Below are positions 601-32,694 of a stretch of DNA of 64,000 nucleotides, one piece after another. A program made the position numbers and the translations under genes. Position 1 is the first letter of the stretch. Every line of letters begins with the position of its first letter. The stretch is from contig OZ241867.1 of assembly GCA_965203175.1 (NCBI GenBank), forward strand, positions 5,056,001 to 5,120,000. Direction: 5' to 3'. The notes under the pieces are model-generated. The model ran no database searches and had not been told where the DNA came from. It saw nothing but the letters and a program-made list of their open reading frames with translations. The DNA comes from Candidatus Latescibacterota bacterium (GTDB lineage: Bacteria > Latescibacterota > UBA2968 > UBA8231).

Positions 601-1614
601 ATGAAGTGTCTGATCGCAGTACTCACGCTGGGACTAGCCAGCCTCTCGCCCGCCATGGCCCAAGACCCAGAGCGCCCTAAGGTAACGGCGAGTGAGGTGG
701 TGGACCGGGAAACATTGAAGGCTTTTGTAGAAGGAGGAAAAGAATACCTAGAGGGTGTCAGGACTATTACCGCAACCGCGAAATTGCGGGACATCTTCAG
801 AGCCGAGGGGGATTGGAAATCCGGCTCCACGTTCCTCGTGATACTGATCAAAAACGGTGCCGTTCTCCTGCACGGGGGCGATCCCGCAATAGACAACGAA
901 GTCCTGATTGATGTCAAAGACGGCAAGGGCAAGAAAGTCGTGCAAGAACTCCTCGCCGCGGCTAGCCGAGGCGGCGATTTTGTCGAATACTATTGGGACG
1001 ATCCAGCGGTAGAAGGGGACGCCAATCCCAAGGTAAGCTACGCGGTCGAATATATCTCCGGTCTATTTGGCAAGCCCCTTGTCTTGATCGGAGGCTATCA
1101 TCAGGATGTGTCCAATGTGGTCACTGGAATACCGGAGATGGCACGCCCCGAGGTAACGGCCAGTGAGGTGGTGGACCGGGAAACCCTGAAGACCTTTGTA
1201 AAGGCGGCGGCCCAAACCTATCGCGAGGCTATGCTTGGCAAATTCAGTGAGCACACATACGTAAAGAAGGCATTCAGGATGGAGGGGAGCGATTGGAAGG
1301 CCGGCTCCATCTACACCTTCATCATGAGCAGCGACGGTTACGTGCTCTTTCACGGAGCCGATCCATCCCGAGAGGGCAGAATCGCGCTCGATCTCGAAGA
1401 CAGCTATGGTGTCAAAATCGTAAAACGGCTCATCGATGCCGCCACCGCGGGAGGCGGCTATGTCGAGTATCACTACAATGATCCAACAGTGGTAGGAGAC
1501 GAAGCCTTCGGCTCGCCCAAGCTGACCTACGCCGAAGGCTTCCAGCTGCCAGACAGGGACCAACTTTTTATCCTTTGTGCCGGCATTTATCTGGAGTCCG
1601 CTACGGCCGATTGA
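601..1614 (+). CDS. Secreted tandem (2x) Cache_2-type domain protein; C-terminal tail lost by frameshift
   Basis: Signal peptide (MKCLIAVLTLGLASLSPAMA) and AGAGGA RBS. Two repeats of VTASEVVDRETLK...HG.DP...GG(D/G)(F/Y)VEY(Y/H)(W/Y).DP...PK(V/L)(S/T)Y. No TM or output domain. Confidence 0.8.
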   Translation: MKCLIAVLTLGLASLSPAMAQDPERPKVTASEVVDRETLKAFVEGGKEYLEGVRTITATAKLRDIFRAEGDWKSGSTFLVILIKNGAVLLHGGDPAIDNEVLIDVKDGKGKKVVQELLAAASRGGDFVEYYWDDPAVEGDANPKVSYAVEYISGLFGKPLVLIGGYHQDVSNVVTGIPEMARPEVTASEVVDRETLKTFVKAAAQTYREAMLGKFSEHTYVKKAFRMEGSDWKAGSIYTFIMSSDGYVLFHGADPSREGRIALDLEDSYGVKIVKRLIDAATAGGGYVEYHYNDPTVVGDEAFGSPKLTYAEGFQLPDRDQLFILCAGIYLESATAD

Positions 1615-1659
1615 AGGCCGCTCTTCGGATCTGCGTCTCGCTAAAGGAAGGAGAACCTT

Positions 1660-2715
1660 GTGAAGCGTCTGACCGCAGCGTTCATTCTGGGGCTAGCCAG
1701 CCTCTTCCCCACCGCACATCCCGCCGTGGCCCAAGCCCCGGAGGTAACCGCCAGCGAGGTGGTGGATCGGGAAACCCTGCAAGCCTTTGTCGAAGCAGCA
1801 AAGGCATCCTTAGAGAGCGCCGCTAACTTCTCTGAGGTTGCCAGCTTGGTGGAAGCATTCAGAAGCGAGGGGGATTGGAAGGCTGGCTCGATGTACCTCG
1901 TCGTACTGACCCTCGAAGGTCTGGTACAATTTCACGGGGCCGATGTGACATTTGAGGACAAAAACGTGCTTGATCTCGAAGATGCCAAGGGCGTCAAAGT
2001 TGTCCAAGAAATCCTCTCCGCAGCCGCAGCGGGTGGCGGCTTTGTCGAGTATTATTGGGACGATCCAGCGGTGGAAGAAGATGACGATTCGCCCAAGCTA
2101 ACTTACGCTGTTTCTGCTACCATACGCGGACAGGAGTTTATCGTAGCCGCCGGCTTCCACATGGATCTGTCCAGCATTGACGCCGAGCCAACCATTTTTG
2201 ATATCTTAGAGGTTACAGCCCAGGATGTGAAAGACCGAGAAACCCTGAAAGCCTTTGTAGAGGGGCTGAGAGTTCTCATTCCCATTATTGAGGAAAAGGG
2301 TTATCCCTACCTAGCGACCGTCCAAGCTGCAATCCGAACCGAGGGGGAGGATTTCAAGCATGGCTCTATCTACATCTTTGTCCTGAGTACCGACGGTGTG
2401 GTGATCTTTCACGGGACCGCCGACCCGAGCTTCTATGGGCAAAATGTGATGGATGTCGAAGATGTCCATGGAGTCAAAATTGTCCAAGAGCTCATTGCCG
2501 CAGCCTTAGCGGGCGGCGGTTTTGTCAAGTATTATTGGGACAATCCGGCGGTAGAAGGCGATGAAGACACCCAATCGCCCAAGTTGAGCTACGTGATCCC
2601 AATCGACATATTCAATCAGGTTTTCGTCGTAGGCGCTGGTATCTATCTGGATCCCGCCACGGCGGTGGAAGGCCAGTCTTGGGGACAACTCAAAAGCCAC
2701 TTCTCAAATCTGTAA
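1660..2715 (+). CDS. Secreted tandem Cache_2-type domain protein with C-terminal TAVEGQSWGQLK tail
   Basis: GTG start after AGGAG, signal peptide ending in AVA-Q, two Cache repeats (GGGFVEYYWDDP...PKLTY). Paralog of 601..1614. Confidence 0.8.
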   Translation: MKRLTAAFILGLASLFPTAHPAVAQAPEVTASEVVDRETLQAFVEAAKASLESAANFSEVASLVEAFRSEGDWKAGSMYLVVLTLEGLVQFHGADVTFEDKNVLDLEDAKGVKVVQEILSAAAAGGGFVEYYWDDPAVEEDDDSPKLTYAVSATIRGQEFIVAAGFHMDLSSIDAEPTIFDILEVTAQDVKDRETLKAFVEGLRVLIPIIEEKGYPYLATVQAAIRTEGEDFKHGSIYIFVLSTDGVVIFHGTADPSFYGQNVMDVEDVHGVKIVQELIAAALAGGGFVKYYWDNPAVEGDEDTQSPKLSYVIPIDIFNQVFVVGAGIYLDPATAVEGQSWGQLKSHFSNL

Positions 2716-2717
2716 CA

Positions 2718-3202
2718 AAAGTTACAGACCTCGAAAGCCTCCGAGCTTTTGTAATAGGGGCGCTTCAGACCTATGTCGCCGCATTGCAGGAGCATGGCGT
2801 CGAGCGCTATAGGGACACCTGAACGTCCTCAGAGCAGAAGAAGGAGATTGGCGGCATGGTTCCATCTACCTATTTATCTTTGCCACTAACGGATACGTGA
2901 TTTTTCATGCCGCGGATCGGACGCGCGAAGCTCGGAATGCAATCGACCTTGAGGACATCAACGGGTTCAAGATAGTCCAAGAAATGATCAAGGTAGCTAA
3001 GGCGGGGGGCGGCTACCTCGAATACTACTACAACGATCCGATAATAATAGGCGACGAAGACACTGGTTCGCCCAAAATTAGTTACGTCGCATCCTTTACT
3101 ACGAGAAGTGGCCGGGAGATTATCGTCGGTGCCGGGTTATATACGGGAGCCGCCACAGCGGTGGAAGAACCGTCTTGGGGACAGCTCAAAAGTGACTTTT
3201 AG
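2718..3202 (+). pseudogene. Frameshifted, 5'-truncated Cache-domain gene fragment
   Basis: KVTDLESLRAFVIGALQTYVAALQEHGVERYRDT* (2718-2822) continues in another frame as LNVLRAEEGDWRHGSIYLFIF... to TAVEEPSWGQLKSDF*. A 1-nt deletion near 2818 explains it. No start codon or signal peptide. Confidence 0.75.
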
Positions 3203-3308: not shown

Positions 3309-3356
3309 CCGTTTGCTGCGCCGCAAATGTTAGACGACAATAAGAGGAGATTTCCC

Positions 3357-4754: not shown

Positions 4755-4851
4755 GGGTGTTCATCCGGGGTAATTCCATTAGAGGCTTCTGGGGAGGGCG
4801 ACTTTTACAAGAGCCGCTAGGCCGCTACATGATGTATGAGAGGAGCTTTTC

Positions 4852-6330: not shown

Positions 6331-6405
6331 TTGCATTGGGGGCTTCCGGGAGGAGACTTTTACAGGGATTGCTAGGCCGCTACATCTATATGAGAGGAGA
6401 TTTTC

Positions 6406-8266: not shown

Positions 8267-8367
8267 TTTAACGTGATGCCGCTTAACCCGAACTCACGTT
8301 GCATTAAGATGTAGGATTAAGCATGTCTTTCCCATGTCATTCATACCTATCAAAAAAGGAAATCATC

Positions 8368-9399
8368 GTGAAGCATCTGACCGCAGCACTCGTCTTGGGG
8401 CTGGCCGGCCTCTTTATCGCCCCCTATCCCGCCGTAGCGCAATCCCCGGAGACAATCGCCAGCGAGGTGGTGGATCGGGAAACCCTGCAGGCTTTTGTCG
8501 AAGGCGCAAAAGCACAGTTGGAATCTATTACTGATCCCAACGACATCTCGCCATTTATTACCAGTCTTGGTACTGAGGGCGATTTCAAGCACGGGAACAC
8601 ATACCTCATCCTATTATACCCACATGGCACGGTGTATTTTCACGCCGGCGATGCGTACGCACAGGGCATAAACCTGCTCGACATGGAAGACGACCGAGGC
8701 AATAATGTTGTACATGCCCTCATCGAAGCCGCGAATGCCGGCGGCGGTTTTGTCGAGTATTATTGGGACGATCCCGCCCAAGAGGGCGACGAGGACACCC
8801 CCAAAATCGCCTACATCACCAACTTCGCCGACGGCATAATCGAACATCCGATAGCCCTAATCGGCGGCTATCATCAGGCTATCGCTCCTATTCCCCAAGT
8901 TACAGCCGCCGATGTGGTAGGTCGGGAGACGCTCAAGGCTTTTGTGCAGGGGACCTTAGAGAGCTATCTCACTGCCATGGAACAAATCGGGCTCGAACAG
9001 CTCCTGCAACATCAGGAAATCTTCAGGAAAGAAGGCGGTCCCTGGAGGCAAGGCTCTATCTACTTCTTTTTGTTCTCCACGGACGGTTACGTGTTATTTC
9101 ACGGTGTCGATCGGTCGCTAGAGTTCAATAAGAGCGACCTCGATAAGACGGATGTAAACGGAGTTAAGTACCTCCGGGAACTTATCAGAGTCTCCAAGGC
9201 GGGCGGCGGTTTTGTTGAGTATTACTGGGACGATCCGACGGTGATCGGCGACGAAGACACTAGCTCGCCCAAAGTGAGCTACGCTGAGCTCTTTACGTTC
9301 CGAGATCAGGAGTATGTCATTGGTGCCGGGTTCTATACGGGATCCGCTTCTACGGCGGTTGAAGGACGGTCCTGGGGACAGCTCAAAAGTCGCTTTTAG
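8368..9399 (+). CDS. Secreted tandem Cache_2-type domain protein with TAVEGRSWGQLKSRF tail
   Basis: GTG start after AAGGA (matches paralog N-termini), signal peptide and two Cache repeats. Confidence 0.8.
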   Translation: MKHLTAALVLGLAGLFIAPYPAVAQSPETIASEVVDRETLQAFVEGAKAQLESITDPNDISPFITSLGTEGDFKHGNTYLILLYPHGTVYFHAGDAYAQGINLLDMEDDRGNNVVHALIEAANAGGGFVEYYWDDPAQEGDEDTPKIAYITNFADGIIEHPIALIGGYHQAIAPIPQVTAADVVGRETLKAFVQGTLESYLTAMEQIGLEQLLQHQEIFRKEGGPWRQGSIYFFLFSTDGYVLFHGVDRSLEFNKSDLDKTDVNGVKYLRELIRVSKAGGGFVEYYWDDPTVIGDEDTSSPKVSYAELFTFRDQEYVIGAGFYTGSASTAVEGRSWGQLKSRF

Positions 9400-9524
9400 C
9401 TAGTAGGACACGCACTACACGAAATACGCCTTTTGCAGGTGGGCTTGTCTGATAGATTTTTTGCAGGGTCAGGTGTATCTTATTCCATATCATTCACATT
9501 CTCACCAAAAGAAAGGAAATCGTC

Positions 9525-10094
9525 ATGAAGTGTCTGCCAGCAGTACTCATTCTGGCACTGGCCACCCTCCTTCCCGCCGCGCATCCCGCCATCGCCCAAG
9601 ACCCGGAGGTAACGGCCGCCGATGTAGTGGACCGAGAAACCCTAAAGGCCTTTGTTCTCGCAGCGGCGGCGCACGCGGATAAAGCCACGAGCCTTGCCGA
9701 GTACCTAGCTGTCTTGCAGGAATTCAGAACCGAAGGACCTTGGAAGCAGGGGTCCATCTACCTCTTTGTTTTTACCACGGATGGCACCTTTCTACTCCAC
9801 GGAGATAATCCAGCTCTCGAGGGCCAAAACATGATCGACCTCGAAGACGCCAACGGAGTCAAAATTCTCCAAGAGCTCATCGCCGTGGCGGCTGAGGGAG
9901 GCGGCTACGTCGAGTATCTTTGGCCCGATCCAGCGGTAGAAGGGGACGAAGAAACCGGCTCGCCTAAAGTGAGCTACGGCATCCCCTATTCCGCCCTCGG
10001 TCAAGATTTCGTCTTGGGCTCTGGCTTTTATCCGGGAACCGCTGCTACGGCGGTTGAGGACCAGTCCTGGGGACAGCTCAAAAGTCGCTTTTAG
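9525..10094 (+). CDS. Secreted single Cache_2-type domain protein with TAVEDQSWGQLKSRF tail
   Basis: Signal peptide MKCLPAVLILALATLLPAAHPAIA and one Cache repeat (GGGYVEYLWPDP...PKVSY). Confidence 0.8.
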   Translation: MKCLPAVLILALATLLPAAHPAIAQDPEVTAADVVDRETLKAFVLAAAAHADKATSLAEYLAVLQEFRTEGPWKQGSIYLFVFTTDGTFLLHGDNPALEGQNMIDLEDANGVKILQELIAVAAEGGGYVEYLWPDPAVEGDEETGSPKVSYGIPYSALGQDFVLGSGFYPGTAATAVEDQSWGQLKSRF

Positions 10095-16248: not shown

Positions 16249-16254
16249 TCAGAA

Positions 16255-20481: not shown

Positions 20482-22443
20482 TCAGAAATAGACTAGAATA
20501 TTTCCCTGCATACCCGTCGAACTATCAATTAGAAACCACGCACCGCCCGCAGCCACATTGCCCAGAACCAATCCTAGGAAAAATGGCTGAATTCGTCTGT
20601 ACAATCCAGGCCCCCCGTACTTCAAAACCATGCTCTTGAAGAACCACACCAAGAAGACGCTCACCCAGATCTGGTTCGTAACCCAAGTTGTGGCGATGGG
20701 AAAGCCGACCGGATGCAGCGGCCACCACAAAAAGTAGTGCCGCGCCAGCATCAGCAACACCATGACCCCGCCACCCACGGCCACGTAAAACCACCCCTCC
20801 CAGTTCACCGCCATCGGGTTGGCGATCCATCCCGCTACATCTTGAAAGGGCTTTTGCGACCCCACGAAGAAGTACTGGTTCAGGTTGATGCCGCCGTAGG
20901 TATAAGCCTGGCGGAGGAGGTACCAGGTCGAGCCGACCAAACTGATGACCACGGCCCATACCATCGCCCAGAACAGCCGCGCTCCACCACCCTGCGCGTG
21001 CAGTTCCCCGTCTAGCTTTAGCCCGTTGGCGCACGCGGCCATGGCGAAAATGCGCACCTTCAAAATCCACGCGTACGTCATGCCCAGCGCCGCCAAGCCC
21101 TCCGCGCCGATAGCCGTGGTTCCCACCGTGGAAGTCATAAAGGCCTGTGGATAAATCGGCGCCCGGATGGTCGCCAAGCCCGCCTCAGCCACAAAGCGGC
21201 TCAACCCCACGAATAGGACGAAGACCACGAACAAAAACCAAGGCACCAACCAACCCGGCAGTCCCGACAGGGTCAGCCACACGCCTAGGATAGCCAAGCC
21301 GATAATCGTCCCAAACACCGCGGTGCGATAGGAGAGCATTTCCCCAGAATCGTCCACTGTCGCGTCCCCTAGAAAAGCTTTGCGACACACGGCCCGCAGG
21401 TGATTGCGTCCCACCCATAGACTAAAGAGCACAAAGGCAATCAGGGCACCCATGCCCTCGTGGGCGGCAATCGCCTCCGAAGTGGCGTACCCGGTCAGTC
21501 GCTCTGTCATGGCAATGCCCAGGACGCTGAAAAGGCCCTGTTGAGCTGTGGTCAAAAGAAAAAAGACCCAGATGCTCAGGAGCACTTGCAGGTTGACGAA
21601 ATAAGCAAACCCCAAGGTCATAAAGCTGAGGGCGAGGCGCAGGCTCACTTGGTCGCGGAGCACGGGGATACTGGTGTCGAGGACTATCGCGGGGATGAAA
21701 TTGTAATAGCTGTGCAGAGCGTCGAGACTCAGCAGTGCGAATGGTATAGAAAACCCCAGCCACATGATGGGATTGCGGAAAAACGGCCGCATCAGCGAGC
21801 CGTCCTCCGCGATCATCTCCAAGGGCAGCTTCACCAGCGGATATACCAAGCGCTCGTGGTCGATCCACTGCCGCCGCAGAATGACCATCGTACACACCAT
21901 CACGAAACACAAGGTCAAAAAGAACAGCGCCCAGTAGCACAGCGGTTGTATCCACGCTCCCCACGGAATGGAGGCCCCGGCTGGCGCGCCCTCGAAAAAG
22001 TGCTGCACAGCCTCGCCATCTAACGGCGCGATCCACCCCTTCATGTACGGGTGGATCAGGTCCACCCAGTCGTTCTCGGGCGTGGCGTAGTAGAACACAC
22101 TGGCGATTTTGGGCACCATGTGCTCGACATAGCCCTCTGTCGGCACGGTAGCCGCCATCATCGCCATGATGAAGACGATCCCCATCTCGGCGCGGCTCAA
22201 CATCAGCCGTCGATGGACCAGACCGAGGAGGGGATTGACCAGACCTGCGAAGAGCGCAAAGACGAAAAAGGCGATGGGCACGCTGATATTGAGGGCCATC
22301 CACGAGGCGTTGATAAAGGTCGAGTGCAGCGCGCCGATCGCAGCACCCAGCGAGAGGACGCAGCCCCAAAAAAATGCCTTGCAACTCAGACCGGAGGATG
22401 CAGTTGGCGGTTTGGAATCCCGAGGCACCGGCTGCTGGCTCAT
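20482..22443 (-). CDS. Large multi-pass inner-membrane protein (DUF6785-like putative transporter), paralog B
   Basis: Start MSQQPV after GAGG. Long identical blocks are shared with 10206..12149 (e.g. ALHSTFINASWMALNISVPIA, ATVPTEGYVEHMVPKIASV). Confidence 0.7.
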   Translation of the reverse strand: MSQQPVPRDSKPPTASSGLSCKAFFWGCVLSLGAAIGALHSTFINASWMALNISVPIAFFVFALFAGLVNPLLGLVHRRLMLSRAEMGIVFIMAMMAATVPTEGYVEHMVPKIASVFYYATPENDWVDLIHPYMKGWIAPLDGEAVQHFFEGAPAGASIPWGAWIQPLCYWALFFLTLCFVMVCTMVILRRQWIDHERLVYPLVKLPLEMIAEDGSLMRPFFRNPIMWLGFSIPFALLSLDALHSYYNFIPAIVLDTSIPVLRDQVSLRLALSFMTLGFAYFVNLQVLLSIWVFFLLTTAQQGLFSVLGIAMTERLTGYATSEAIAAHEGMGALIAFVLFSLWVGRNHLRAVCRKAFLGDATVDDSGEMLSYRTAVFGTIIGLAILGVWLTLSGLPGWLVPWFLFVVFVLFVGLSRFVAEAGLATIRAPIYPQAFMTSTVGTTAIGAEGLAALGMTYAWILKVRIFAMAACANGLKLDGELHAQGGGARLFWAMVWAVVISLVGSTWYLLRQAYTYGGINLNQYFFVGSQKPFQDVAGWIANPMAVNWEGWFYVAVGGGVMVLLMLARHYFLWWPLHPVGFPIATTWVTNQIWVSVFLVWFFKSMVLKYGGPGLYRRIQPFFLGLVLGNVAAGGAWFLIDSSTGMQGNILVYF

Positions 22444-22453
22444 CGCATGGACC

Positions 22454-23221
22454 TCAGTTTTTAATGGGTTCTCGCTCTCCGCGGGGGTAGTAATAGCCAA
22501 TCTCGCGGTCAAAGGCGTACTCGATGTCGATCATTTCGATCGGTTCATCGCGGAAGTTAAAACGCAGGGCTATATCGCCGAGGCGCAGGCGCACTTTGCG
22601 GACCTCTGGATGGAGGTCTGCAAAGGCGAGGAAGCCTTCGACCTCCTGTCCGCTGAAGACCACCCCGCCAGGGTACAGCGTTCTGCTCAGCAAATCCTTC
22701 CGGCCTTGGAAAGTGGTGTAGAGTTGGCCGACATAACCGGTGATGTACTTGCGGTAGTACTCCTCCATATCGGTCTGGCTCAGCACTGGATAGCGGCGGC
22801 CGTTATCGCTGATGATACCGCTCTTTGCCGGATCGATCAGGATTTTCGGGTACTGATAGTTCTTGACTTTGAGCTGGAAGACGGTAAAGCGCCGGGGCGT
22901 CGTGCCCGTGGAGGGGTCGCGCCAATTGCCAAAGGTATAGGGGTTGGTCGATTCCGTGCCCTGGAGGGATTGAGCGGGGAACAGCCTGTTCAGTTCGCCG
23001 TCGGAAAACGGCCGCACCGATATCTCCAGCCGATCGGCCACATAGGTGACCGTCCCATCGTCGCTGACGATCATCCCAGCAGCTTGGCCCTCTTCATCGA
23101 GAGGACGCAGCGGGTCGGCGTAGTATTGATAGCCGTACCTACAGCTAGCAAGACCCAGCGCTAGGACGAGAATACACGCCCATCGTCTATAGCCAAAAGA
23201 AATCAAAGCGCGCATCGGCAA
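22454..23221 (-). CDS. Uncharacterised lipoprotein
   Basis: Hydrophobic stretch ending in LGLASC followed by a soluble beta-rich region. Tightly coupled in the operon. Confidence 0.65.
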   Translation of the reverse strand: MPMRALISFGYRRWACILVLALGLASCRYGYQYYADPLRPLDEEGQAAGMIVSDDGTVTYVADRLEISVRPFSDGELNRLFPAQSLQGTESTNPYTFGNWRDPSTGTTPRRFTVFQLKVKNYQYPKILIDPAKSGIISDNGRRYPVLSQTDMEEYYRKYITGYVGQLYTTFQGRKDLLSRTLYPGGVVFSGQEVEGFLAFADLHPEVRKVRLRLGDIALRFNFRDEPIEMIDIEYAFDREIGYYYPRGEREPIKN

Positions 23222-23230
23222 TGCCTTTTT

Positions 23231-25069
23231 CTAGTATGCTACGGCCACCGCGCCACCGCGAACCTGCGCGCCGACGGCGGCGTCCATTAAAACCCGATAA
23301 ATGTACACCCCCGGTGGTACTAGTCGCCCCGCCCCATCCCTACCGTCCCAGACTACGCGGCCGAAACCGCTGGACTGGGACATCGCTTGGCTCCAGACGA
23401 GACGGCCGGAGAGGTCATGGACTGCGAGTTCAACAGGAACGGGTACCGTGGCCTGGAACAGGTTATACGTGAACTCCGCCCAATCGTTCACGCCATCCCC
23501 GTTGGGCGTAAAGGGATTGGGATGGATCTTCACCTCAGCCAGCAACTCCCCCTGCTCCTTTGGGGAAAACCCGACGAGCAAATCCTCTGAATTGAGGTCA
23601 ATGTGCACATCGCCGGGAACAATTGGCTGGGGCATCTCGTCGCGTTTGCTGTTGAAAACTCGGCCCTCAAAGCGCGTGCCCGAGACAAAAACGCGGCAGT
23701 CGAAATCGACTTCGATTAGGATCGCATCCCGGTCGATCAAGCGCTCGGGAAAAGAGACGCGCAGGCGGTTTTCCTCCACTTCGGCGATAAAATCGTCCGA
23801 GCTTATGCCAGCGATCCGCACCTCTTGCACCACCGCGGCAGTAGGTGTGGCGATCTCCACTCCGTCGAAACCGGGGTCTCCAGGATCCACGCGCGGCCTC
23901 AGCGCATAGGTGAAGCGCACTAGTTCGCCCGGGGAGACGAGCGCGGGCCAGATCTCGCCGGCGACCTGCTCGACCAAAGGCGGAGAAAACTCAACCGAGA
24001 GGGAATCAATGCGGGAACGCGACAGCGGCAGCGCGCTGGCAAAGTCGATCTCAAACTGGAAATAGCGAGCAGGTTTGGGGGCGACCAAGGGTTCCCTCCC
24101 AGTGGACGGATAGGGCGCAGACCACGGAGTCCAATTTTCCGTATCGGCTACAATAGGGCCCCTCGCCTTGGGGTGCAGCGCGTCGTATGCGCTGCGCGAT
24201 ACGGCCTGTTGGCCGTTTTGTCCTATGCCCGTAAAGCTGAGGTAGATATTCGGATCGGGCGTCGAGCCGCTTCGCGTGCGAATCTGCAGGGCACTGCCGG
24301 GATCGTCCACCGCATCCCAAGTCATAGCCCCCAGAACGACCGGCTCGCCAAAGTCGATGATGTCGGATGTAAAGGTGGCTGAGGAGGCATATCCCCTGCC
24401 CCAGACCTCCACCTCGCTGAGTTGCCAGAGACGAGCACTGGGCAAGCTGATCGTATCGGACAGAGCCACATAGCGCACCAAGCGCGGCGGAATTTCGATG
24501 TGCGCTGTATCTCCCTCGGTCTGCTCCACCTCGGCTACCAGCTCCCACTCGCGCACGAACCAGTGCCAGTTTCTCTGCCTTTGGGGAAAGGCAACGGGCT
24601 GCTTGCCGTCTTGGATGAAAACTTGGAACCCTTCGATAAAGCGGAACTCAAGTCCTTCGACCGCCGAAAAACCAATGCGATCTACGCCGAATGGTGCCCC
24701 CAAATCGACGACTAGGACAACGGCGAAAAAGGGGTCGTTCTCGCGCGTATTGACGATATCGAGTTCGATGGGGGGCCAGCCACTCAAACGGTCGCCGTCC
24801 ACTACATTTTTCAGGCTCTCGAATTTCCGCCAAGTGTAGTTGGTCAGCACCCGCGCCGAGTCCAACTGGCGCAGGTTGAGGGCTAGGTTCTCGCCCGACA
24901 CTTCGAGCGGCTCTAGCCAGCCGGAACTCTGCTCGTCGCTCAACAACTCCAAGGTGCCGACGGTATTCCAGGGACGTTCCTGCCCGCCGACTGTCCAGAG
25001 GTCCACGGCTGTAGCCCGTACCCAAAGGCCCAAGACGAGGAACAGAGTAGCAGTGCGTCTTCTGGCCAT
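23231..25069 (-). CDS. Secreted protein with discoidin/galactose-binding-like region and C-terminal FlgD-Ig / T9SS type-B-like domain
   Basis: Signal peptide. VVDLG...LSEVEVWG, then PNPFTPNGDGVND...WDGRDGAGRLVPPGVYIYRV...VAVAY*. Confidence 0.7.
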   Translation of the reverse strand: MARRRTATLFLVLGLWVRATAVDLWTVGGQERPWNTVGTLELLSDEQSSGWLEPLEVSGENLALNLRQLDSARVLTNYTWRKFESLKNVVDGDRLSGWPPIELDIVNTRENDPFFAVVLVVDLGAPFGVDRIGFSAVEGLEFRFIEGFQVFIQDGKQPVAFPQRQRNWHWFVREWELVAEVEQTEGDTAHIEIPPRLVRYVALSDTISLPSARLWQLSEVEVWGRGYASSATFTSDIIDFGEPVVLGAMTWDAVDDPGSALQIRTRSGSTPDPNIYLSFTGIGQNGQQAVSRSAYDALHPKARGPIVADTENWTPWSAPYPSTGREPLVAPKPARYFQFEIDFASALPLSRSRIDSLSVEFSPPLVEQVAGEIWPALVSPGELVRFTYALRPRVDPGDPGFDGVEIATPTAAVVQEVRIAGISSDDFIAEVEENRLRVSFPERLIDRDAILIEVDFDCRVFVSGTRFEGRVFNSKRDEMPQPIVPGDVHIDLNSEDLLVGFSPKEQGELLAEVKIHPNPFTPNGDGVNDWAEFTYNLFQATVPVPVELAVHDLSGRLVWSQAMSQSSGFGRVVWDGRDGAGRLVPPGVYIYRVLMDAAVGAQVRGGAVAVAY

Positions 25070-27669
25070 CAGTCCAGTCCGGCGAATATGACGAGGAACG
25101 ATTCGACGCGGTTTTGTTCCCGGTCCTCAAAGCGCTGCTGCTGCACTTGCGTCCCCAAGTTTATGGTCACCTGATATCCGAGGTACGCCTGGGTAACGGA
25201 TAGCTGCAGCGCGCCGACCCAACCCCAAAAATCGAGCTGCGCTCCAGGTTTGTCGGCCCAATCCCAGAATTTGGTCAATTCCGTGCCGCCTTCCAGTTCG
25301 AGATTGGGCATCAACTGCACCGCCAGCGTCAGAAAGAGGATCTCAGACAGGTCGTTTTTGCTGCCCTCACTTTCCAGATAGGCGGTCTGGCGTCGGTACA
25401 TGCTCTTCAATTTGGGGTGGAATACCAGTGCTTCCGTGAGTTGGAAAGAGTAGTCGAGTTTGTGGATCAGTCCGAGGAAATGGGAATCGTCGATGATCTC
25501 CGGTTCTTCCCCGGGCCGGGTGAGCCGGGCGACATTGTCGCCGCGCTGAGCGAGGCCCTCGTATTTGACCTTGGCCGACGTGTTGAAGCGGCCCCAAGCC
25601 TGGTCGAAACCAATAAAAACCGAGTTGACGACCGCGTTTTGGGCCAGCATGGGGTCTTCAAAGGGAAATTCGCTCACGCCGAACGTACCCGGCGGCTGCG
25701 TCCAAAACAACTGGTCGTCAATGATGTTGTCTTCGACGAACTTGAGCTGGTAGAAAAAGCGGAATTGGCCCAACGCGACCCGGTCTTGCTGCATTTTGAA
25801 GAGCAGATAGGAGAAGCGACTGCGGCGATCGGCTGACAACAGCCACTGGTTTGAATAGCCTCCTAATAGCTGGACCCCGGGGAAGATATTGATGCCTAGG
25901 TATCCATTGTACCCTCGGTGGTCCCGTTGGAACGGATAGTCGGCCTCGTCGTCATCCTCAAAGCGGTCGATTAGGGTGTTGTTGTCCATGTCGATACCAA
26001 AGAGGAATTCGGGCGGATCCACGGTGTAGCGGAGGAAGGGTTCGTCGTAATCGGGTCGGGTGTTGTCGTTCTGGTTGAAATCCGAGATAAAATCGTTGTT
26101 CTCGTCCAAGCCGGGAAATATCCCGCCTCTGGGGCCGCCGGAGATGGACCGGCGCTGACTTTCGTTGGGTTGCTGGGCCCGGCGCCAGTCGGGAAAGCGA
26201 TCTTGGTCATCGTTGTCGTCGACAAATTCATACACGCCGCGCAGCTTGTTGGTGTAGTCGAGCTTGCCCTGCTGATCCTGGATGTACATAGACGTGGAGT
26301 AGTCCTGGTCCACGCTGAAAATTTCGCCGTACGCAAACCACGGATAGTACCGACTCGTAGTGCGCGCGGTCAGGTATCCAACTTGAGCGGTGTTTGCGGC
26401 CCGCACATGCCTTTCGAAATTCACATTGGGCAGGCGGCGCCACTGATTGTTGTTATTCCACTCGGCCATGATGTCGAGTCCGGCGACATCCTGGACCTCA
26501 AGCGTCAGACCGTAGATTTCGTTGGCCGTCGGCAGGCCGTAGTCAAAGCGGACGAGACGCTGGTTGGAGCCGTCTTGGACATTCCGCGCGGACTTAGCCA
26601 CGGGCAGGTACACGGGTTGGTCCGAGAAATCGGTCTGTAGGTTGGAAGTCACCTCCACCAAGTAATCATTGGCCAATACCAGTTCAAAGACTAGCTTGCG
26701 GATCAATTCGGGCTGGGCAAACGCGTAGGTCAGGACGATCTGCTCGGCTCCGTCGGCGACCAAGGCTCCGCGGCGCGGCGTGCCGCCCTCGACTAGGGGG
26801 ACAATATCGAGAGGTTCGGTGTCTGCATTCGCCAAGACGCGCTCGGAAAAGAGAATAGCGCCCCCCTTGCCGTCCTCCGGTGAATCGTCGCTGATGCGGA
26901 TTTGCACTTGGCGGATGACGTCGCGATTCTGCTCGGTCGTCAAGTTTCCCGCGCGGATCCCGGCCAGACTCAAATCCGGCGAGGTCCGCCCCAGATGGGC
27001 ATTGACGTACGTGCCACCCATCTGGACGAAATCCCCTATCTGCACCGTCGTCCTGAAGCCGAGCAAATTGTTGAAATCAGTGATCTTCGATTCGTTTACC
27101 TCTCCCCCTTCGAGCGCTATGGGCAGGTTGACCCGAGACATGAGCAAGGTCGCCGCGTATTTGTCCGACTGGAGATCGACCTGGACCCCATTGAAGGCTG
27201 GTTTGGAAAAAGTAAAAGGGGTCAGGGCCGTGCGGATCTCATCGCCGACCGTCACGGCAAAGTAGTACTGGCCCCTTTGCACCTGGGTCACAACCAGCCT
27301 GTTGAACCAAGAATTGAAGCGGCTGCTCTTGAGGATGTCGCTGCCAAAGGTCGTGGGCTGCTCCTGGGTCCAGCGGTAGATCTGCCAGCCCTCGGTCACG
27401 TAGTTCCCGTAGAGATCGTACCAGCGCGTGCCCTCCAGTTCGGTATCTACGTAGCGCTGGTAGGGAACTCTGGCGTAATTGGAATACTGCCACCAATCCC
27501 ACTTGTACTCGGCGTAGAGTTGCTGAGGGCGATACCACTTCTGGATAGTGGGATCAATGGCATCAAAAAAGGTCTGGGCCCCCGTCGGGTTCAGGGCCTG
27601 CGCCTGACACGCTGGCGGCACGGCCGCGAGCAAGGCCACGGTGATTGCGATGTATTTGCAGTAGGTCAC
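25069..27669 (-). CDS. Large secreted protein, probable outer-membrane beta-barrel with Asp-rich Ca-binding-like repeats
   Basis: A GTG start at 27669 gives a signal peptide (...LLAAVPPACQA). Amphipathic beta-strand pattern in the C-terminal third. DDNDDQD / DENND / DMDNN repeats. Confidence 0.55.
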   Translation of the reverse strand: MTYCKYIAITVALLAAVPPACQAQALNPTGAQTFFDAIDPTIQKWYRPQQLYAEYKWDWWQYSNYARVPYQRYVDTELEGTRWYDLYGNYVTEGWQIYRWTQEQPTTFGSDILKSSRFNSWFNRLVVTQVQRGQYYFAVTVGDEIRTALTPFTFSKPAFNGVQVDLQSDKYAATLLMSRVNLPIALEGGEVNESKITDFNNLLGFRTTVQIGDFVQMGGTYVNAHLGRTSPDLSLAGIRAGNLTTEQNRDVIRQVQIRISDDSPEDGKGGAILFSERVLANADTEPLDIVPLVEGGTPRRGALVADGAEQIVLTYAFAQPELIRKLVFELVLANDYLVEVTSNLQTDFSDQPVYLPVAKSARNVQDGSNQRLVRFDYGLPTANEIYGLTLEVQDVAGLDIMAEWNNNNQWRRLPNVNFERHVRAANTAQVGYLTARTTSRYYPWFAYGEIFSVDQDYSTSMYIQDQQGKLDYTNKLRGVYEFVDDNDDQDRFPDWRRAQQPNESQRRSISGGPRGGIFPGLDENNDFISDFNQNDNTRPDYDEPFLRYTVDPPEFLFGIDMDNNTLIDRFEDDDEADYPFQRDHRGYNGYLGINIFPGVQLLGGYSNQWLLSADRRSRFSYLLFKMQQDRVALGQFRFFYQLKFVEDNIIDDQLFWTQPPGTFGVSEFPFEDPMLAQNAVVNSVFIGFDQAWGRFNTSAKVKYEGLAQRGDNVARLTRPGEEPEIIDDSHFLGLIHKLDYSFQLTEALVFHPKLKSMYRRQTAYLESEGSKNDLSEILFLTLAVQLMPNLELEGGTELTKFWDWADKPGAQLDFWGWVGALQLSVTQAYLGYQVTINLGTQVQQQRFEDREQNRVESFLVIFAGLD

Positions 27670-27680
27670 AAAAAACCGCC

Positions 27681-30065
27681 TTAGTAGGCTACTCCGACGA
27701 GCCGTGTAAACTCCCTCGTCGGCTCGTCGCTGTCGATGCTCAGGCGAAACAGGTACACCCCAGGAGGCACCATATTGCCCGCCCAATCGCGGCCGTCCCA
27801 CAAAAGGACGTACTCCCCGCTCGACCCGGACTGGTCGCGCAGCCGAGCGACCAGTCGCCCCCCCAGATCGTACACGACCGCCCGAAGTTGGCGGGACGCC
27901 TCCAAGCCGACCAGCGCAAAGTGCACGGTCAACTGTTCGTTGCGCCCATCTCCGTTCGGCGTGATCACCGACGGCCTGATCGTCGGGGTGCGGAGACCGC
28001 TGCTGCCGGCCGGTAGGAAAACTCGCAGGTCGTCGCCTAGCTCGTCCGGGCTCGCATCCCCCGGATCAATCTGTTGCCAAGAGCCCGGCTCAGCCGAGCG
28101 CCGTACAAAACCCTCAAAGAGCGTGGCATTGAGGAAGACTTGGGTGGCGAAATTCACCTCGATCAGTTGCGCGGCCTGTACCGCCGTCGGCAGGGTGAGG
28201 ACCAGTGAGTCCGCCGCGGCCCGCACGGCAACGGGCTCTATTTCCTCGCGGTTTAGTTTCAGGCCCCGAAAGACAGGCTGGGTCGGAACGCGAATCAAAA
28301 TCTGGTCGAAACCGCGAGACCCAGACCCGAAACTAGGGCGGATGAAGTAGGAGAATTCTTCCGGCTGGCCCGGTGTAGCTACCCGAGGGACGATTTCGGC
28401 GACGATCTGTTCGGCCGCCGGGTCCGTGAATTCAAGCGCCACACTGGACAGAGCCGGAGCCCGCTGCGGATCATCGCTGATCAACTCCACTTGTATCTGG
28501 GCATAGCTGCGGGGGCTGGGCGATTGAAAGCGCGCACCCGAATACTCGTAGGGCAAGCTCCACGGACTCCATCCCGCGCCTGGGATGAGTTCGACGGTGG
28601 GCTCTTTCTCGCGTTTGAAGGGCGGCAGCTTGTTCCAGGCCTTTTCAGTGTATTCATTGCCCTCCTTGTCGAAGTAGTGCAGTTTCTCGCCTAGCTCATT
28701 GCCCGTGCGCGTGCGCACCGCCAGTCTAGTAGCCGGCGGCGTCTCTCCGTTCCAGTGGATGGCCGTCAGGTTTTTGGCCCCGCCTAAGTCGATCAAGCCA
28801 GAGGTCAAGGTGACGCCCGGAATGAACCCCTCCCCAAAAGCCTGGATCTCCCGCACGGTTGAGACGCCCGTGCGCCGCTGATTGCGATTCGACCAGAACA
28901 GGTAGCGCACCTTGCGCGGGGGCAGGTGCTCTTCAAAGATGAAGCGCTCAGGAGCGGGATTGGCTTCAAGTTCGGCAAGCTCTTCCCAGACTAGGTCGTC
29001 GAAATCGATGAACTCGCCTGCGCCCGCGCCACTGCTGCGCATCCCGTCCGAGGCAAAGAGTTTGTACCCGAAGACCGGAACGTTGCGCTTGCCAGTGAAC
29101 TCAAAGGACGTGATGATGCGCACATGGTCTACCCAGAATAGCGTTCCCAAGTCTATGTTGACCCACCCCCACCGCTTGGGGTCGCCGAAGAAATAGCCTA
29201 GGGAATTCCAGCCCGTATTGTAATTCCCGTCTATGATATCCGAAGCAAAGGTCGGTGGCTCGCTTTCGTCGCCTCCGGCCGGTGCGATGAGCGCGCCGCC
29301 CCCCCGTTGCTCGCTGCCCAAGACGATATTGTCGCCCAAGGCACTGACCTCGATTTCGGCCAAGCGCGGATTTTCGGCTGTGCGCAGGGCACGAAACAGC
29401 ACAAAGCGCACGAACTGCCTAAAGGTCAGCTCGCCTCGGCCGCTCAATTTCACGTCCTGCGGCAGGAGCGGATAGGTGAGTTCGTACTCGGTATTGGGAC
29501 GGGTCGTCTCGGCCAACAAACTGTATTTCTTGAGTCCAGAGCCAAAATAGACGGCTTCCTCGCCCGTAGAGACAAATACCTGGAACATGCTGAAAGGATT
29601 GCCCGAGTGGGCGAATTTTACCGCGATCTCCGTGGCGGAGACGGCCCGGCCTAGATCCACTTCTACCCACCAATCCTCAAGGGGGGCACCAGCGGCAGGG
29701 GTCCAAAACGTCTCCTCGTCGCCGTCGAGAATGCGGCCGGCCATTCTAAGGTTCGTGCCCGCCCCGCGTATGCCGCCCAAGCGCTCTTCTCCGTCCCCAA
29801 AGTCGCCCAGCACGGAGAACTGGTCGACATTGAGCGCGGCATTAATCGATTTGCGGATGAAGACCGGGCTAACTCGGCCGTCCGGCGCAATCGCAATAGT
29901 CCCCTCGGGAGCGCTCCACGCGCGCCACTGCGACGAGCGACTGAAGCGAATTTCACCAGCCAGCGCATCCCAAGGCCAGAGGAGGAAAAGGCCAGCGCAA
30001 ACGACGAGCATCTTCCCTGTGGGGTACGAAATAGTTGAAGTTGCTTTTCTCCTAGTGTGCCCCAC
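27681..30065 (-). CDS. Secreted protein with two discoidin-like regions and C-terminal FlgD-Ig / T9SS type-B-like domain
   Basis: ILDGD..TFW...VEVDLG and IIDGN..TGW...IDLG, then ITPNGDGRNE...WDGRDWAGNMVPPGVYLFRL...VGVAY*. Paralog of 23231..25069. Confidence 0.7.
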   Translation of the reverse strand: MGHTRRKATSTISYPTGKMLVVCAGLFLLWPWDALAGEIRFSRSSQWRAWSAPEGTIAIAPDGRVSPVFIRKSINAALNVDQFSVLGDFGDGEERLGGIRGAGTNLRMAGRILDGDEETFWTPAAGAPLEDWWVEVDLGRAVSATEIAVKFAHSGNPFSMFQVFVSTGEEAVYFGSGLKKYSLLAETTRPNTEYELTYPLLPQDVKLSGRGELTFRQFVRFVLFRALRTAENPRLAEIEVSALGDNIVLGSEQRGGGALIAPAGGDESEPPTFASDIIDGNYNTGWNSLGYFFGDPKRWGWVNIDLGTLFWVDHVRIITSFEFTGKRNVPVFGYKLFASDGMRSSGAGAGEFIDFDDLVWEELAELEANPAPERFIFEEHLPPRKVRYLFWSNRNQRRTGVSTVREIQAFGEGFIPGVTLTSGLIDLGGAKNLTAIHWNGETPPATRLAVRTRTGNELGEKLHYFDKEGNEYTEKAWNKLPPFKREKEPTVELIPGAGWSPWSLPYEYSGARFQSPSPRSYAQIQVELISDDPQRAPALSSVALEFTDPAAEQIVAEIVPRVATPGQPEEFSYFIRPSFGSGSRGFDQILIRVPTQPVFRGLKLNREEIEPVAVRAAADSLVLTLPTAVQAAQLIEVNFATQVFLNATLFEGFVRRSAEPGSWQQIDPGDASPDELGDDLRVFLPAGSSGLRTPTIRPSVITPNGDGRNEQLTVHFALVGLEASRQLRAVVYDLGGRLVARLRDQSGSSGEYVLLWDGRDWAGNMVPPGVYLFRLSIDSDEPTREFTRLVGVAY

Positions 30066-30077
30066 TTTCTCGTCCTC

Positions 30078-31850: not shown

Positions 31851-31864
31851 GTGCCTATCGTAAC

Positions 31865-32266
31865 TCACTGTGCGGCAACCCGTATAATGAACCCACCTTC
31901 GACTCCTTCGGGTGCGATGCCAATGCGAATGATCTGGCCGGGGGCCACAAGGGCTGTCTGCGGGGGGAAGGACGACTCGCCTTGCGCGTTCAGGGGCGAA
32001 CCAGGCCAGGCTATTTCCACTTCGAATGGTGCCGAGGCATCTCGGAGCAGGCATTCGATCACCGCCGTGCTGTTGGCCTCGATCCGGGCGCTCTGCTGAC
32101 AGGCGGCAATAGAGATCTCCATCTCGTCGATAAATGAATTGACGACCCGGAGTTCAACCGCTCCTTCTCCAGCGCGGGTCGTCTCGGTAGAGAGCGGAAT
32201 CTCCTCTTCGCAGCCGCCCAGCATAGCCGCTGACGCCAAGACGAGAAAAACGCGCAGCATTCTCAC
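31865..32266 (-). CDS. Small lipoprotein
   Basis: Lipobox LGGC. VNSF..E.E.SIAAC...ECL is shared with the next gene. Confidence 0.65.
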   Translation of the reverse strand: MRMLRVFLVLASAAMLGGCEEEIPLSTETTRAGEGAVELRVVNSFIDEMEISIAACQQSARIEANSTAVIECLLRDASAPFEVEIAWPGSPLNAQGESSFPPQTALVAPGQIIRIGIAPEGVEGGFIIRVAAQ

Positions 32267-32277
32267 GGCGGCTCTGC

Positions 32278-32694
32278 TCAGTTCTGGCGGCGGCCGTCGA
32301 TCAGGATAATGAAGCCGCTACCCGTCCCTCCTGGAACGTTCCTGATTTCGACGACCTGCCCGTACGACACAGTGACGGTTTTTGGCGGAGGTGGAGCATA
32401 CCCTTGCCCAACGGGTGGATTCAGCCACACGACGACGACGTCGAAGGCGTTGATATCCTCCTCGATCAGGCACTCGACCGATTGAACTTGGTCGGACAAG
32501 AGGCGGAATTTCTGGAAGCAGGCGGCGATACTCACCTCTACCTCGCCGCGGAAGGAATTGACGAACTTGATGAAGCGGCTGGGCTCACCTTCCTCGATGT
32601 CCTTTGGCAGAGTCGCCAGATCGATCTCTTTTTCGCAGCCGCTCGACAGAAAGATGCCCGTGCCGAGCAGGAGCAAATGCACGCATCTCAGCAT
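32278..32694 (-). CDS. Small lipoprotein (paralog of 31865..32266)
   Basis: Lipobox LSSGC. Shared SIAAC/ECL/PPxT/GQ/GFII pattern. Confidence 0.65.
   Translation of the reverse strand: MLRCVHLLLLGTGIFLSSGCEKEIDLATLPKDIEEGEPSRFIKFVNSFRGEVEVSIAACFQKFRLLSDQVQSVECLIEEDINAFDVVVVWLNPPVGQGYAPPPPKTVTVSYGQVVEIRNVPGGTGSGFIILIDGRRQN

Follow-up and report, generated by a model that had tools for sequence, protein, structure and literature searches.

Do the exported proteins of this locus carry a common C-terminal address label, and what would read it? In the 64-kb stretch of DNA analyzed here (the window), several genes end in the same short peptide, called the tail below. The phyla in which such tails occur are abundant in soils, sediments and waters, and are almost uncultured. 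A portable tag common to dozens of families of exported proteins would let annotators flag many "hypothetical proteins" as envelope-localized; it would also point to a reader or sorting machine and would give a minimal targeting tag in these bacteria. On the evidence assembled below, the tail appears to be a previously undescribed address or docking tag borne by exported envelope proteins of several little-studied phyla.

Tails and their carriers in the window

The pattern TAVE..SW[GA]..K was searched in all six reading frames and was found five times in the window, at 2659-2694, 3155-3190, 9352-9387 and 10047-10082 on the + strand and at 32832-32867 on the - strand. A stop codon follows 3-6 residues past each match, and the stop ends of the carriers lie at 2715, 3202, 9399, 10094 and 32814. 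The five proteins or fragments to which the sequence-only reading had ascribed a shared C-terminal motif were all recovered in this way, with identical stop coordinates. The back-translated pattern, with its five matches in the window, gave a mean of 0.00 matches in 100 dinucleotide shuffles, none of which contained even one. Rfam and tRNA scans of the window returned no matches.

The first tail, TAVEGQSWGQLKSHFSNL followed by its stop codon (2659..2715, + strand; regex, shuffles and Pfam), closes an exported two-domain Cache protein of 351 aa (1660..2715, +), which displays two sCache_2 domains (Pfam dCache_2, E 5.8e-34) and an N-terminal signal-like segment. It is followed by a decayed Cache fragment (2716..3202, +), read in frame 3 and then in frame 2, that ends in TAVEEPSWGQLKSDF (3155-3202). 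This fragment has neither start nor signal peptide and is a frameshifted Cache remnant, of which 2897-3202 is the end. Two further Cache carriers were identified with Pfam on the same strand: a two-domain protein of 358 aa (8323..9399) with tail TAVEGRSWGQLKSRF at 9352-9399, and a single-domain protein of 189 aa (9525..10094) with tail TAVEDQSWGQLKSRF at 10047-10094, the latter region being 89.5% identical at the DNA level to locus L086 of a Latescibacteria MAG. The complete Latescibacterota genome OX638377.1 is the nearest relative of the window. The + strand carriers belong to sCache_2/dCache_2 (E down to 5.8e-34) and are 50-59% identical to the first of them (1660-2715). These four are Cache paralogs and are therefore not mutually unrelated.

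The fifth carrier, P0001 (32814..33764, - strand), is an exported CBM9-fold protein encoded by the lead gene of an operon, and bears the tail TAVESISWARIKSSFAD at 32814-32867. No Pfam match was obtained for it, and its AF2 model matches the CBM9 structures 7nwn (E 2.8e-9) and 1i82 (TM 0.79). It is the sole carrier in the window that is non-homologous to the Cache carriers. The earlier description of the tail-bearing proteins of the window as unrelated is consequently correct for this one carrier against the other four, but not among the four + strand paralogs. The last 40 aa of P0001, used as a search query, retrieved orthologues only (5 matches).

The window also holds a Cache paralog devoid of a tail (601..1662, + strand; Pfam and paralog comparison), which ends in ATAD*, its stop codon lying at 1614. 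Past 1603 the following frame encodes IEGRSSDL, an out-of-frame relic of the tail left by a frameshift.

Distribution, position and conservation of the tail

A scan of the genome and of related phyla had been proposed in the sequence-only reading, together with the caution that a motif found internally, or on cytoplasmic proteins, as often as on secreted ones would speak against a sorting signal. The degenerate DNA scan of species genomes gave at least 121 matches, and 118 of the 121 listed sit 3-14 codons ahead of a stop. Several phyla are represented, the matches listed originating from Latescibacterota, Gemmatimonadota, Eisenbacteria, Handelsmanbacteria and unnamed MAGs. The tail is also borne by loci L058 and L098, from Gemmatimonas phototrophica MAGs. 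Two listed matches, L044 from Oscillospiraceae and L054 from Streptomyces, are internal and belong to unrelated taxa, which is what chance would produce. With a six-frame HMM, 119 of the 120 matches scoring at least 25 bits end within 16 aa of a stop. A profile search of 1.84 billion representative proteins returned 223 matches with a library-wide E<=0.001. Of the best 150, 142 end no more than 16 aa from the C-terminus. Terminal copies far outnumber internal ones in both the DNA scan and the protein search. The pattern used for the DNA scan forced TAVE, [ST]W[GA] and [ILM]K and covers TAVE-type tails; because these residues were preset, bias extends to the logo, to the counts per taxon and to the predominance of CBM9-like carriers.

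The consensus reads (T)AVE-x-x-[ST]-W-G-x-[IL]-K-x-x-[FY], followed by 0-6 further residues, for a total of about 15-17 residues. At position +7 relative to the W, which was not forced by the pattern, F is found in 60, Y in 24, L in 14 and M in 9 of 120 tails. Other unforced positions are conserved as well, namely +2 (R/Q/K/H) and +5 (A/S). The W is followed by G in 108 of 120 tails, and W-G-x-[IV]-K is kept even in tails found without the TAVE requirement. Among 118 36-mers, 115 are distinct, with wobble bases free; the tail is shown by these data to be under protein-level selection. The motif is preceded at positions -8 to -11 by a linker rich in G, A, P, S and D. Past the K, 3-6 residues of mixed nature are found in 112 of 120 tails, the whole range of the extension being 3-14, and the last residue is R (24), Q (21), E (21), K (18), F (11) or another. 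Two lineage flavors can be distinguished, WG[RKQH]IK[AS][ST][FLM] in Latescibacterota and Gemmatimonadota and WGxIKx[LVM]YR-end in Eisenbacteria and unnamed MAGs. These flavors cut across protein families, which suggests a common reader.

The helical hydrophobic moment of the 8-residue core is 0.391, versus 0.380 in shuffles and 0.358 in control C-termini, and a simple amphipathic helix finds no support in this moment, which is not above that of shuffles. The strand-period moment of the core is 0.574 and its mean hydrophobicity 0.07. The AF2 model of P0001 displays a helix at 291-302 with a pLDDT of only about 60. The model of a protein with four tandem tail units is poor (mean pLDDT 54, and 23-38 in the tail region) and mixes strand and helix.

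Carrier families and comparison with known signals

The carriers of at least 150 aa, 153 in number, fall into 24 sequence clusters once their last 28 aa are removed; the CBM9-like family accounts for 101 of the 153 in this set, which derives from the TAVE-forcing scan. Pfam domains found on carriers are CBM9_1, Beta_helix, CHRD, NHL, FGE-sulfatase, TED+Big_1, LTXXQ, BNR, SnoaL, Temptin_C and sCache_2, and all 22 named records among the cluster members are labeled "hypothetical protein". The tail is thus shown to occur on at least 24 unrelated sequence clusters, in a near-exclusively C-terminal position. The idea of a modular C-terminal element borne by unrelated secreted families holds across genomes, though not for the four paralogs within the window.

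An N-terminal hydrophobic signal-like segment was detected by a crude hydropathy rule in 68 of 71 carriers versus 311 of 543 neighboring genes, which agrees with the co-occurrence with Sec signal peptides anticipated from the window; 5 of the 68 signal-bearing carriers are lipobox-like. A TM-like 19-mer beyond residue 90 is present in just 1 of the 71, and the earlier remark that the tail comes without a TM helix is confirmed. The copy number of the tail within a protein is not fixed: the lipoproteins P0012 and P0040 contain four tandem units each, and P0014 and P0100 have one unit after each of two domains. Its presence varies among homologues too. Among the 120 best homologues of an NHL carrier, the tail is found on 6, FlgD_ig or Por_Secre_tail on 7 and a C-terminal TM-like stretch on 4, and the tail is missing from the paralog L072:2150-2791, as it is from the window paralog 601-1614.

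Prior description of the tail as a Pfam or TIGRFAM domain was not found: no Pfam or NCBIfam model fits it significantly, its sole matches being to unrelated models with E>=0.07 (deoxyhypusine synthase, daptide, NHL). The tail profile produced two chance-level matches in the PDB (E 0.3 and 0.54), and literature searches on the tail motif, on sorting signals in these phyla and on DUF6785 yielded nothing relevant. The tail is thereby shown to be absent from Pfam, NCBIfam, PDB, the searched literature and source names. The T9SS CTD/sorting models TIGR04183 and PF18962 (type A), TIGR04131 and PF13585 (type B) and PF13860 (FlgD_ig) matched 0 of 40 tails (30 aa each) at E<=10, and none of these five models is present on the 71 full-length carriers.

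A published checklist of eight criteria for small C-terminal sorting signals is given in section 5 of bioRxiv 10.1101/2023.06.07.544157, and as worded in that section six of them (1, 2, 3, 6, 7 and 8) describe the tail. It is C-terminal (criterion 1; 118 of the 121 listed matches, 142 of the best 150), it is present several times per genome (criterion 2; five copies in the window, at least five loci each on OZ242361.1 and OZ247580.1) and it has a near-invariant signature (criterion 3; W, G and K, with F/Y at +7, partly forced by the pattern). Most carriers have a signal peptide (criterion 6; 68 of 71 by the crude hydropathy rule), pairs of carriers share the signal alone (criterion 7; 24 clusters, 153 carriers), and some homologues have no tail or another signal (criterion 8; NHL family, L072:2150-2791, window 601-1614). 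The two remaining features are lacking: the strongly hydrophobic TM region (criterion 4), the tail being 15-17 aa long with a mean hydrophobicity of 0.07, and the terminal cluster of 2-5 basic residues (criterion 5), mixed residues being found after the K.

By the criteria of that section, the LPXTG/sortase, PEP-CTERM/exosortase, GlyGly-CTERM/rhombosortase and MYXO-CTERM/myxosortase systems resemble the tail in their extreme C-terminal position, their multiple occurrences per genome, their near-invariant signature on otherwise unrelated signal-peptide carriers and the existence of homologues without the signal or with another anchor. In sortase-type signals, however, a TM segment and a terminal Arg cluster place the signal in the membrane for a peptidase that is intramembrane or membrane-bound; the tail has neither and, unlike them, occurs in internal and tandem copies. 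With the T9SS CTD the tail has in common the absence of a TM helix, its occurrence on Sec-exported proteins of FCB-group bacteria, the short linker before it and its position in NHL homologues. The T9SS CTD is roughly 70-100 aa long. It is a folded beta-sandwich domain (PMC4804311), whereas the tail has about 15 aa, and both are found in one operon on different proteins. Because the tail has neither the TM segment and basic cluster of sortase-type signals nor the folded domain of the T9SS, no known system can simply serve as the model for its mechanism.

Dockerins, folded domains of about 70 aa that bind Ca and whose partner, cohesin, is known, offer a functional analogy as a C-terminal module on many unrelated secreted proteins with a common receptor, such a receptor being proposed for the tail; the dockerin is a folded domain, however, and the tail a peptide. 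The OMP beta-signal is a C-terminal alternation of small/hydrophobic and polar residues with an aromatic near the end, which the tail recalls by its strand-period moment (0.574) and its own aromatic near the end. It was rejected on the grounds that the carriers are soluble folds (CBM9, Cache, NHL, beta-helix) and not barrels, and that only 14 of 120 tails end in F, Y or W. A terminal lysine of the Lpp type was discarded as well, K being last in only 18 of 120. The Bacteroidota O-glycosylation sequon, which is not known to allow W as its third residue, was likewise discarded.

Proposed docking role, rival explanations and candidate reader

The tail is best explained, with a probability of about one half, as a modular localization tag read in trans by a putative envelope receptor and used for docking or retention rather than for cleavage. 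The proposed mechanism can be summarized as follows. The tail, which a short linker rich in G, A, P and S connects to the C-terminal end of envelope proteins exported by Sec, would act as a docking peptide, in which an extended (T)AVE stretch would be followed by a segment of 2-3 turns that exposes W, I/L and F/Y. This peptide would be read in trans by a conserved receptor of the envelope, which would hold or sort the cargo at a particular site there. Neither a membrane-spanning step nor a free C-terminus would be required, and cleavage would probably be absent. For the CBM9-like carriers, the likeliest site would be an outer-membrane-associated assembly encoded just downstream, which may combine proteins ending in a T9SS-like domain with a lipoprotein and an approximately 900-aa protein.

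Docking is favored over cleavage, as suggested by the tandem and internal copies of P0012, P0040, P0014 and P0100, which are hard to reconcile with a signal needing a terminal position and cleavage. The competing view is that of an export and cleavage signal: a dedicated periplasmic peptidase or translocon, PorU- or sortase-like, would recognize the tail, translocate the cargo either across the outer membrane or onto it, and remove the tail. The six checklist features shared by the tail (1, 2, 3, 6, 7 and 8 in the section cited) fit such a signal equally well. The tail also occupies the position of FlgD_ig/Por_Secre_tail or of a C-terminal TM anchor in NHL homologues, and many proteins with T9SS-like C-terminal domains are found in the same genomes and operons. 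We nevertheless hold cleavage to be unlikely, given the missing TM segment and Arg cluster (criteria 4 and 5 of that section), a length of about 15 aa, far below that of a beta-sandwich CTD, with 0 of 40 tails matching CTD/sorting models, the intact internal and tandem copies, an extension past the motif that varies between 3 and 14 residues, and the absence of a recurrent peptidase beside tail genes (20 loci, 132 neighbors). A receptor might also be dispensed with altogether, a short amphipathic segment binding the membrane surface, LPS or peptidoglycan and in this way tethering periplasmic proteins. A precedent exists in E. coli PBP5, for which PMC2909392 describes a C-terminal 18-residue amphipathic helix anchoring the protein to the outer face of the inner membrane; like the tail, the PBP5/PBP6 anchor is short, C-terminal and free of a TM helix, and it positions a periplasmic protein. 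The PBP5 helix is clearly amphipathic, however, whereas the tail core has 8-10 residues, about half the length of that anchor, a helical moment (0.391) close to those of shuffles (0.380) and controls (0.358) and a mean hydrophobicity of 0.07. The near-invariant W-G..K and upstream VE, conserved across phyla, families and folds, exceed the usual constraint on lipid binding, and the tail is also present on lipoproteins that are already anchored. Such an anchor appears quite unlikely on these grounds. In its favor are the terminal helix predicted by AF2, the typically interfacial character of W, K and F/Y, the avidity that tandem copies would provide, and the place of the tail, where Cache sensor domains normally run into a TM helix.

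Self-association, in which the tails of several subunits would pack as an oligomerization tag or the tail would cap its own domain, is very improbable. Hydrophobic residues at 0, +3 and +7 suit helix-helix packing and a four-unit array could be an intramolecular tetramer, but the AF2 model of this array is not compact (pLDDT 23-38), and the tail follows a flexible linker on 24 unrelated folds or more, which speaks against its capping any one of them. As for similarity by chance, a repeat in the DNA or an artefact of ORF calling, the two internal matches in unrelated taxa (L044, L054) are of the kind expected. This reading is already refuted by the counts, with 0 shuffles containing a match, 118 of the 121 listed matches adjoining a stop, 115 of 118 36-mers distinct and 223 library proteins retrieved.

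The receptor required by the docking proposal may be sought in the operon led by P0001. All its following genes are on the - strand. Two small lipoproteins are encoded downstream of P0001 (32278-32694 and 31865-32266), together with three proteins having weak FlgD_ig/CHU_C C-terminal domains in Pfam (30078-32054, 27681-30065 and 23231-25069), an uncharacterized 910-aa protein of family C4 (25069-27801), a lipoprotein of family C3 (22454-23221) and a DUF6785/DUF6784 membrane protein (20482-22512). The gene order of the 20482..32694 block recurs beside CBM9-like tail genes in other genomes, and in 35 of 44 cases a CBM9-like tail gene is followed, on the same strand and at most 4.5 kb downstream, by the start of a family C0 gene, whose product ends in a T9SS-like domain. 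The link between tail and operon first suspected from the window is supported for these carriers and is not seen with the other families: the 132 proteins neighboring 20 loci with non-CBM9-like tails comprise no recurrent family and no recurrent peptidase, one rhomboid being found among them at L078. As tails of other families stand in unrelated neighborhoods, the operon is only a candidate for the role of reader. Considered as a candidate reader, the DUF6785/DUF6784 protein is present in the examined flank of 5 of the 44 CBM9-like tail genes, and twice in the window. That family reaches beyond the organisms known to have the tail, with homologues named also from Poribacteria, Omnitrophota and Mariniphaga.

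A more ambitious reading is offered tentatively, as possible rather than probable. The tail may mark an unrecognized, TM-independent sorting or docking pathway of the Latescibacterota-Gemmatimonadota-Eisenbacteria branch, with its own dedicated reader, possibly an assembly of the uncharacterized C3 lipoprotein and C4 protein of 900 aa, whose genes adjoin those of the CBM9-like carriers, and would run parallel to the T9SS-like domains found in these operons. If true, many small binding proteins and enzymes would plug into one envelope hub via a 15-residue peptide. Profile comparison of families C3 and C4 with the PDB revealed no relatives. Their Atlas matches are uncharacterized clusters of Gemmatimonadota and Latescibacterota, the nearest named cluster being DUF6029 at 0.83, to be taken as a lead only. 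An equivalence between the 910-aa family C4 and the DUF5916 part of a CBM9_1+DUF5916 protein (60625-62859) was rejected, with an hhalign probability of 0.4%; in this Rosetta-stone comparison the CBM9 parts alone are related (probability 81%).

Tails and carriers in the window

A six-frame regular expression search of the window with TAVE..SW[GA]..K returned five matches. Four are on the forward strand (2659, 3155, 9352 and 10047) and one is on the reverse strand, from 32867 down to 32832; the coordinates and peptide strings given for these tails by the sequence-only reading, which proposed a protein-sorting signal, are correct. A stop codon follows 3-6 residues past the motif in all five cases, and the back-translated DNA pattern, matched five times in the window, was absent from 100 dinucleotide shuffles.

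The carriers are less diverse in the window than the word 'unrelated', used in that reading, had claimed. It holds for P0001 (32814-33764, reverse strand), the lead gene of the envelope operon, which has no Pfam match and whose AF2 model (mean pLDDT 79.8) matches CBM9 structures (7nwn, E 2.8e-9; 1i82, TM 0.79); its tail is kept in orthologues at 83-85% identity. It does not hold for the four forward-strand carriers, all of which are sCache_2/dCache_2 paralogs (Pfam, E down to 5.8e-34) with 50-59% identity to the first one and tails varying at the x positions only. One of these is a decayed single Cache domain (2716-3202, forward strand, frame 3 then frame 2) directly after gene 1660-2715; the ORF at its end (2897-3202) lacks a start and a signal peptide, the tail being still intact. 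A fifth paralog (601-1614, in the region 601-1662, forward strand) has lost its tail. It stops at ATAD, and in the following frame IEGRSSDL is what a frameshift and mutations have left of TAVEG.SWG.L. Two loci of Latescibacteria MAG OX638377.1 share DNA identities of 89.5% with window positions 9747-10370 and 84.7% with 9052-9706, which makes the source of the window a relative of that organism.

Distribution, anatomy and carrier families

The degenerate-pattern scan of one genome per GTDB species yielded at least 119 loci with at least 121 matches. Of the 121 matches listed, 118 are in frame with a stop that follows 3-14 codons later; the exceptions are one Oscillospiraceae MAG, one Streptomyces genome and one match running into masked sequence. 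Going by their record titles, the listed loci comprise at least 69 from Latescibacterota, at least 21 from Gemmatimonadota, at least six from Eisenbacteria, at least two from Handelsmanbacteria, at least 19 from unnamed MAGs and two outliers, these counts being lower bounds among the matches listed and not proportions. With wobble bases left free, the 118 tail matches listed represent 115 distinct 36-mers, so that it is the peptide, rather than a repeat in the DNA, that is under selection. As an independent test, 1.84 billion representative proteins were searched with a profile built from 120 tails, giving 223 matches at a library-wide E<=0.001; the motif lies at most 16 residues from the C-terminus in 142 of the best 150. 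Carriers that depart from the terminal position are informative: the lipoproteins P0012 and P0040 display four tandem tail units each, and the library proteins P0014 and P0100 one unit behind each of two domains. Five further non-terminal library matches resemble read-through or frameshift calls, and another, P0101, is a phage tape-measure-like repeat.

Some positions were fixed by the scan pattern, and conservation persists at the unforced ones of 120 tails. Counting from the W, position +2 is R, Q, K or H, +5 is A or S and +7 is F (60), Y (24), L (14) or M (9). Three to six residues lie beyond the K in 112 of the 120, and G, A, P, S and D abound in the four residues preceding TAVE. Tails collected without requiring TAVE, from neighbouring genes and NHL homologues, keep [ST]WGx[IV]Kxx[FY], often with VE upstream. 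The tail comes in two lineage flavours that cut across protein families: Latescibacterota and Gemmatimonadota have WG[RKQH]IK[AS][ST][FLM]xx, Eisenbacteria and unnamed MAGs have WGxIKx[LVM]YR-end.

The scan loci supplied 71 complete carrier ORFs, of which 68 have a hydrophobic N-terminal segment (lipobox-like in five), versus 311 of 543 neighbouring genes; another TM-like stretch is present in just one of the 71. Both results are in line with the proposed co-occurrence with signal peptides and lack of a TM helix. Pfam names 23 of these 71 carriers (CBM9_1 11, CHRD 3, Beta_helix 3, NHL 2, and FGE-sulfatase, TED+Big_1, LTXXQ and BNR/Sortilin one each) and 16 of the 79 library matches of at least 150 aa (Beta_helix 10, CBM9_1 3, Chlam_PMP, SnoaL and phage tail protein one each). 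Deprived of their last 28 residues, 153 carriers form 24 BLAST clusters, including CBM9-like (101 carriers), beta-helix (18), NTF2-like lipoprotein (6), CHRD (3), Cache (3) and NHL (2); the TAVE-type tail is thus dominated by one family and clearly spills over to many others. Among the best 120 homologues of one NHL carrier, six end in the tail, seven carry FlgD_ig or Por_Secre_tail and four end in a TM-like stretch. The NTF2-like family, to which P0012 and P0040 belong, also includes four tandem paralogs with a tail on each (L021:5371-8028) and three of which two carry it (L072:668-2791), the third ending right behind the domain.

Nature of the tail

This evidence establishes the tail, at the level of sequence, as a modular C-terminal tag on predicted Sec-exported proteins, under strong peptide-level constraint that spans four or more named lineages and 24 or more clusters. 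The pattern is best explained by one putative trans-acting reader, because the constraint is shared across lineages and families and the lineage flavours ignore protein family. The tail could be a cleaved export signal, which is a live alternative; docking or retention is tentatively favoured over cleavage, since carriers retain tandem and internal copies, the length of the extension past the motif varies and most of the cargo consists of enzymes and small binding proteins (Cache, CBM9, NTF2-like, CHRD, LTXXQ chaperone-like protein). Also live are a self-association tag and a receptor-free membrane or wall anchor, similar to the PBP5 helix (PMC2909392). AF2 places a helix at P0001 residues 291-302 (pLDDT ~60); the helical hydrophobic moment of the tail (0.391) equals that of shuffles (0.380), its strand-period moment is 0.574, and the model of a four-unit tandem-tail protein is poor.

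No sorting-signal or domain model of NCBIfam or Pfam matched the full-length carriers or 40 isolated 30-residue tails at E<=10 other than unrelated ones at E>=0.07, and the tail is in this respect absent from the described domains. The tail profile found nothing meaningful among PDB sequences, each of the 22 cluster members examined that bear a name is titled "hypothetical protein", and nothing relevant to the motif strings or to sorting signals of these phyla was found in full-text literature outside subscription journals and supplements. On the eight-attribute checklist of Haft for small C-terminal sorting signals (bioRxiv 10.1101/2023.06.07.544157), the tail shows attributes 1, 2, 3, 6, 7 and 8 but lacks a transmembrane segment (attribute 4) and a basic cluster (attribute 5). 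Its length also falls well below that of the beta-sandwich CTD of T9SS cargo.

Gene context and other genes of the window

The suggested link between tail and envelope operon stands for CBM9-like carriers, whose genes come first in a gene order that is conserved. On the same strand and no more than 4.5 kb downstream, 35 of 44 CBM9-like tail genes are followed by the start of a C0 gene (a large family whose C-terminal domain is T9SS-like, with weak FlgD_ig/CHU_C similarity) and 12 of 44 by that of a C3 gene (a lipoprotein family of ~260 aa). Members of C4 (~900 aa), FG-GAP/ASPIC proteins, a PPIase and DUF6785 proteins also recur in the vicinity. Both C3 and C4 are uncharacterised families that are found most often in Gemmatimonadota and Latescibacterota and have no relatives in the PDB. 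The link was not seen for the other families, whose tail genes lie in unrelated neighbourhoods where no recurrent partner was found.

In the window the complete set is present, running on the reverse strand from 33764 to 20482. A hairpin with a 15-bp stem and a weak T-run (32716-32749) directly follows the P0001 stop and precedes two small paralogous lipoproteins (32278-32694 and 31865-32266; 34% identity, no Pfam match). The ORF at 30078-32054 overlaps the second, so it probably begins at a more internal start codon. The reverse strand also encodes two polytopic membrane proteins of the DUF6785+DUF6784 type, one convergent with the Cache-tail cluster (10206-12251) and the other closing the P0001 operon (20482-22512); the family, of which no mention was found in the literature, lies within 6 kb of five of 44 CBM9-like tail genes elsewhere and is present in other phyla too. 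At 12170-13957 (reverse), 16111-18471 (forward), 15369-16241 (reverse) and 40044-41387 (forward) lie FG-GAP/ASPIC (UnbV) proteins, one FGE-sulfatase-like protein anchored at its N-terminus and a sulfatase; in 14 of 44 loci the FG-GAP/ASPIC family recurs close to the CBM9-like tail gene.

A 744-aa CBM9_1+DUF5916 protein (60625-62859, forward strand) has a large C-terminal domain in place of the tail; hhalign relates its CBM9 portion to the CBM9-like family that bears the tail (probability 81%). Six paralogs with a C-terminal AhpC/TSA-thioredoxin-like (ResA/TlpA-like) domain lie at 3327-7890, 36940-39979 and 62884-63885, three of them in tandem between the Cache genes; five are 475-496 aa long, with an N-terminal half without assignment and no obvious signal peptide. 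On the reverse strand, at 47134-57342 and 45999-46769, lie a type I polyketide synthase of 3402 aa, ordered KS-AT-DH-MT-ER-KR-ACP and then a second KS and AT, and, just downstream of it, a 4'-phosphopantetheinyl transferase and an alpha/beta hydrolase.
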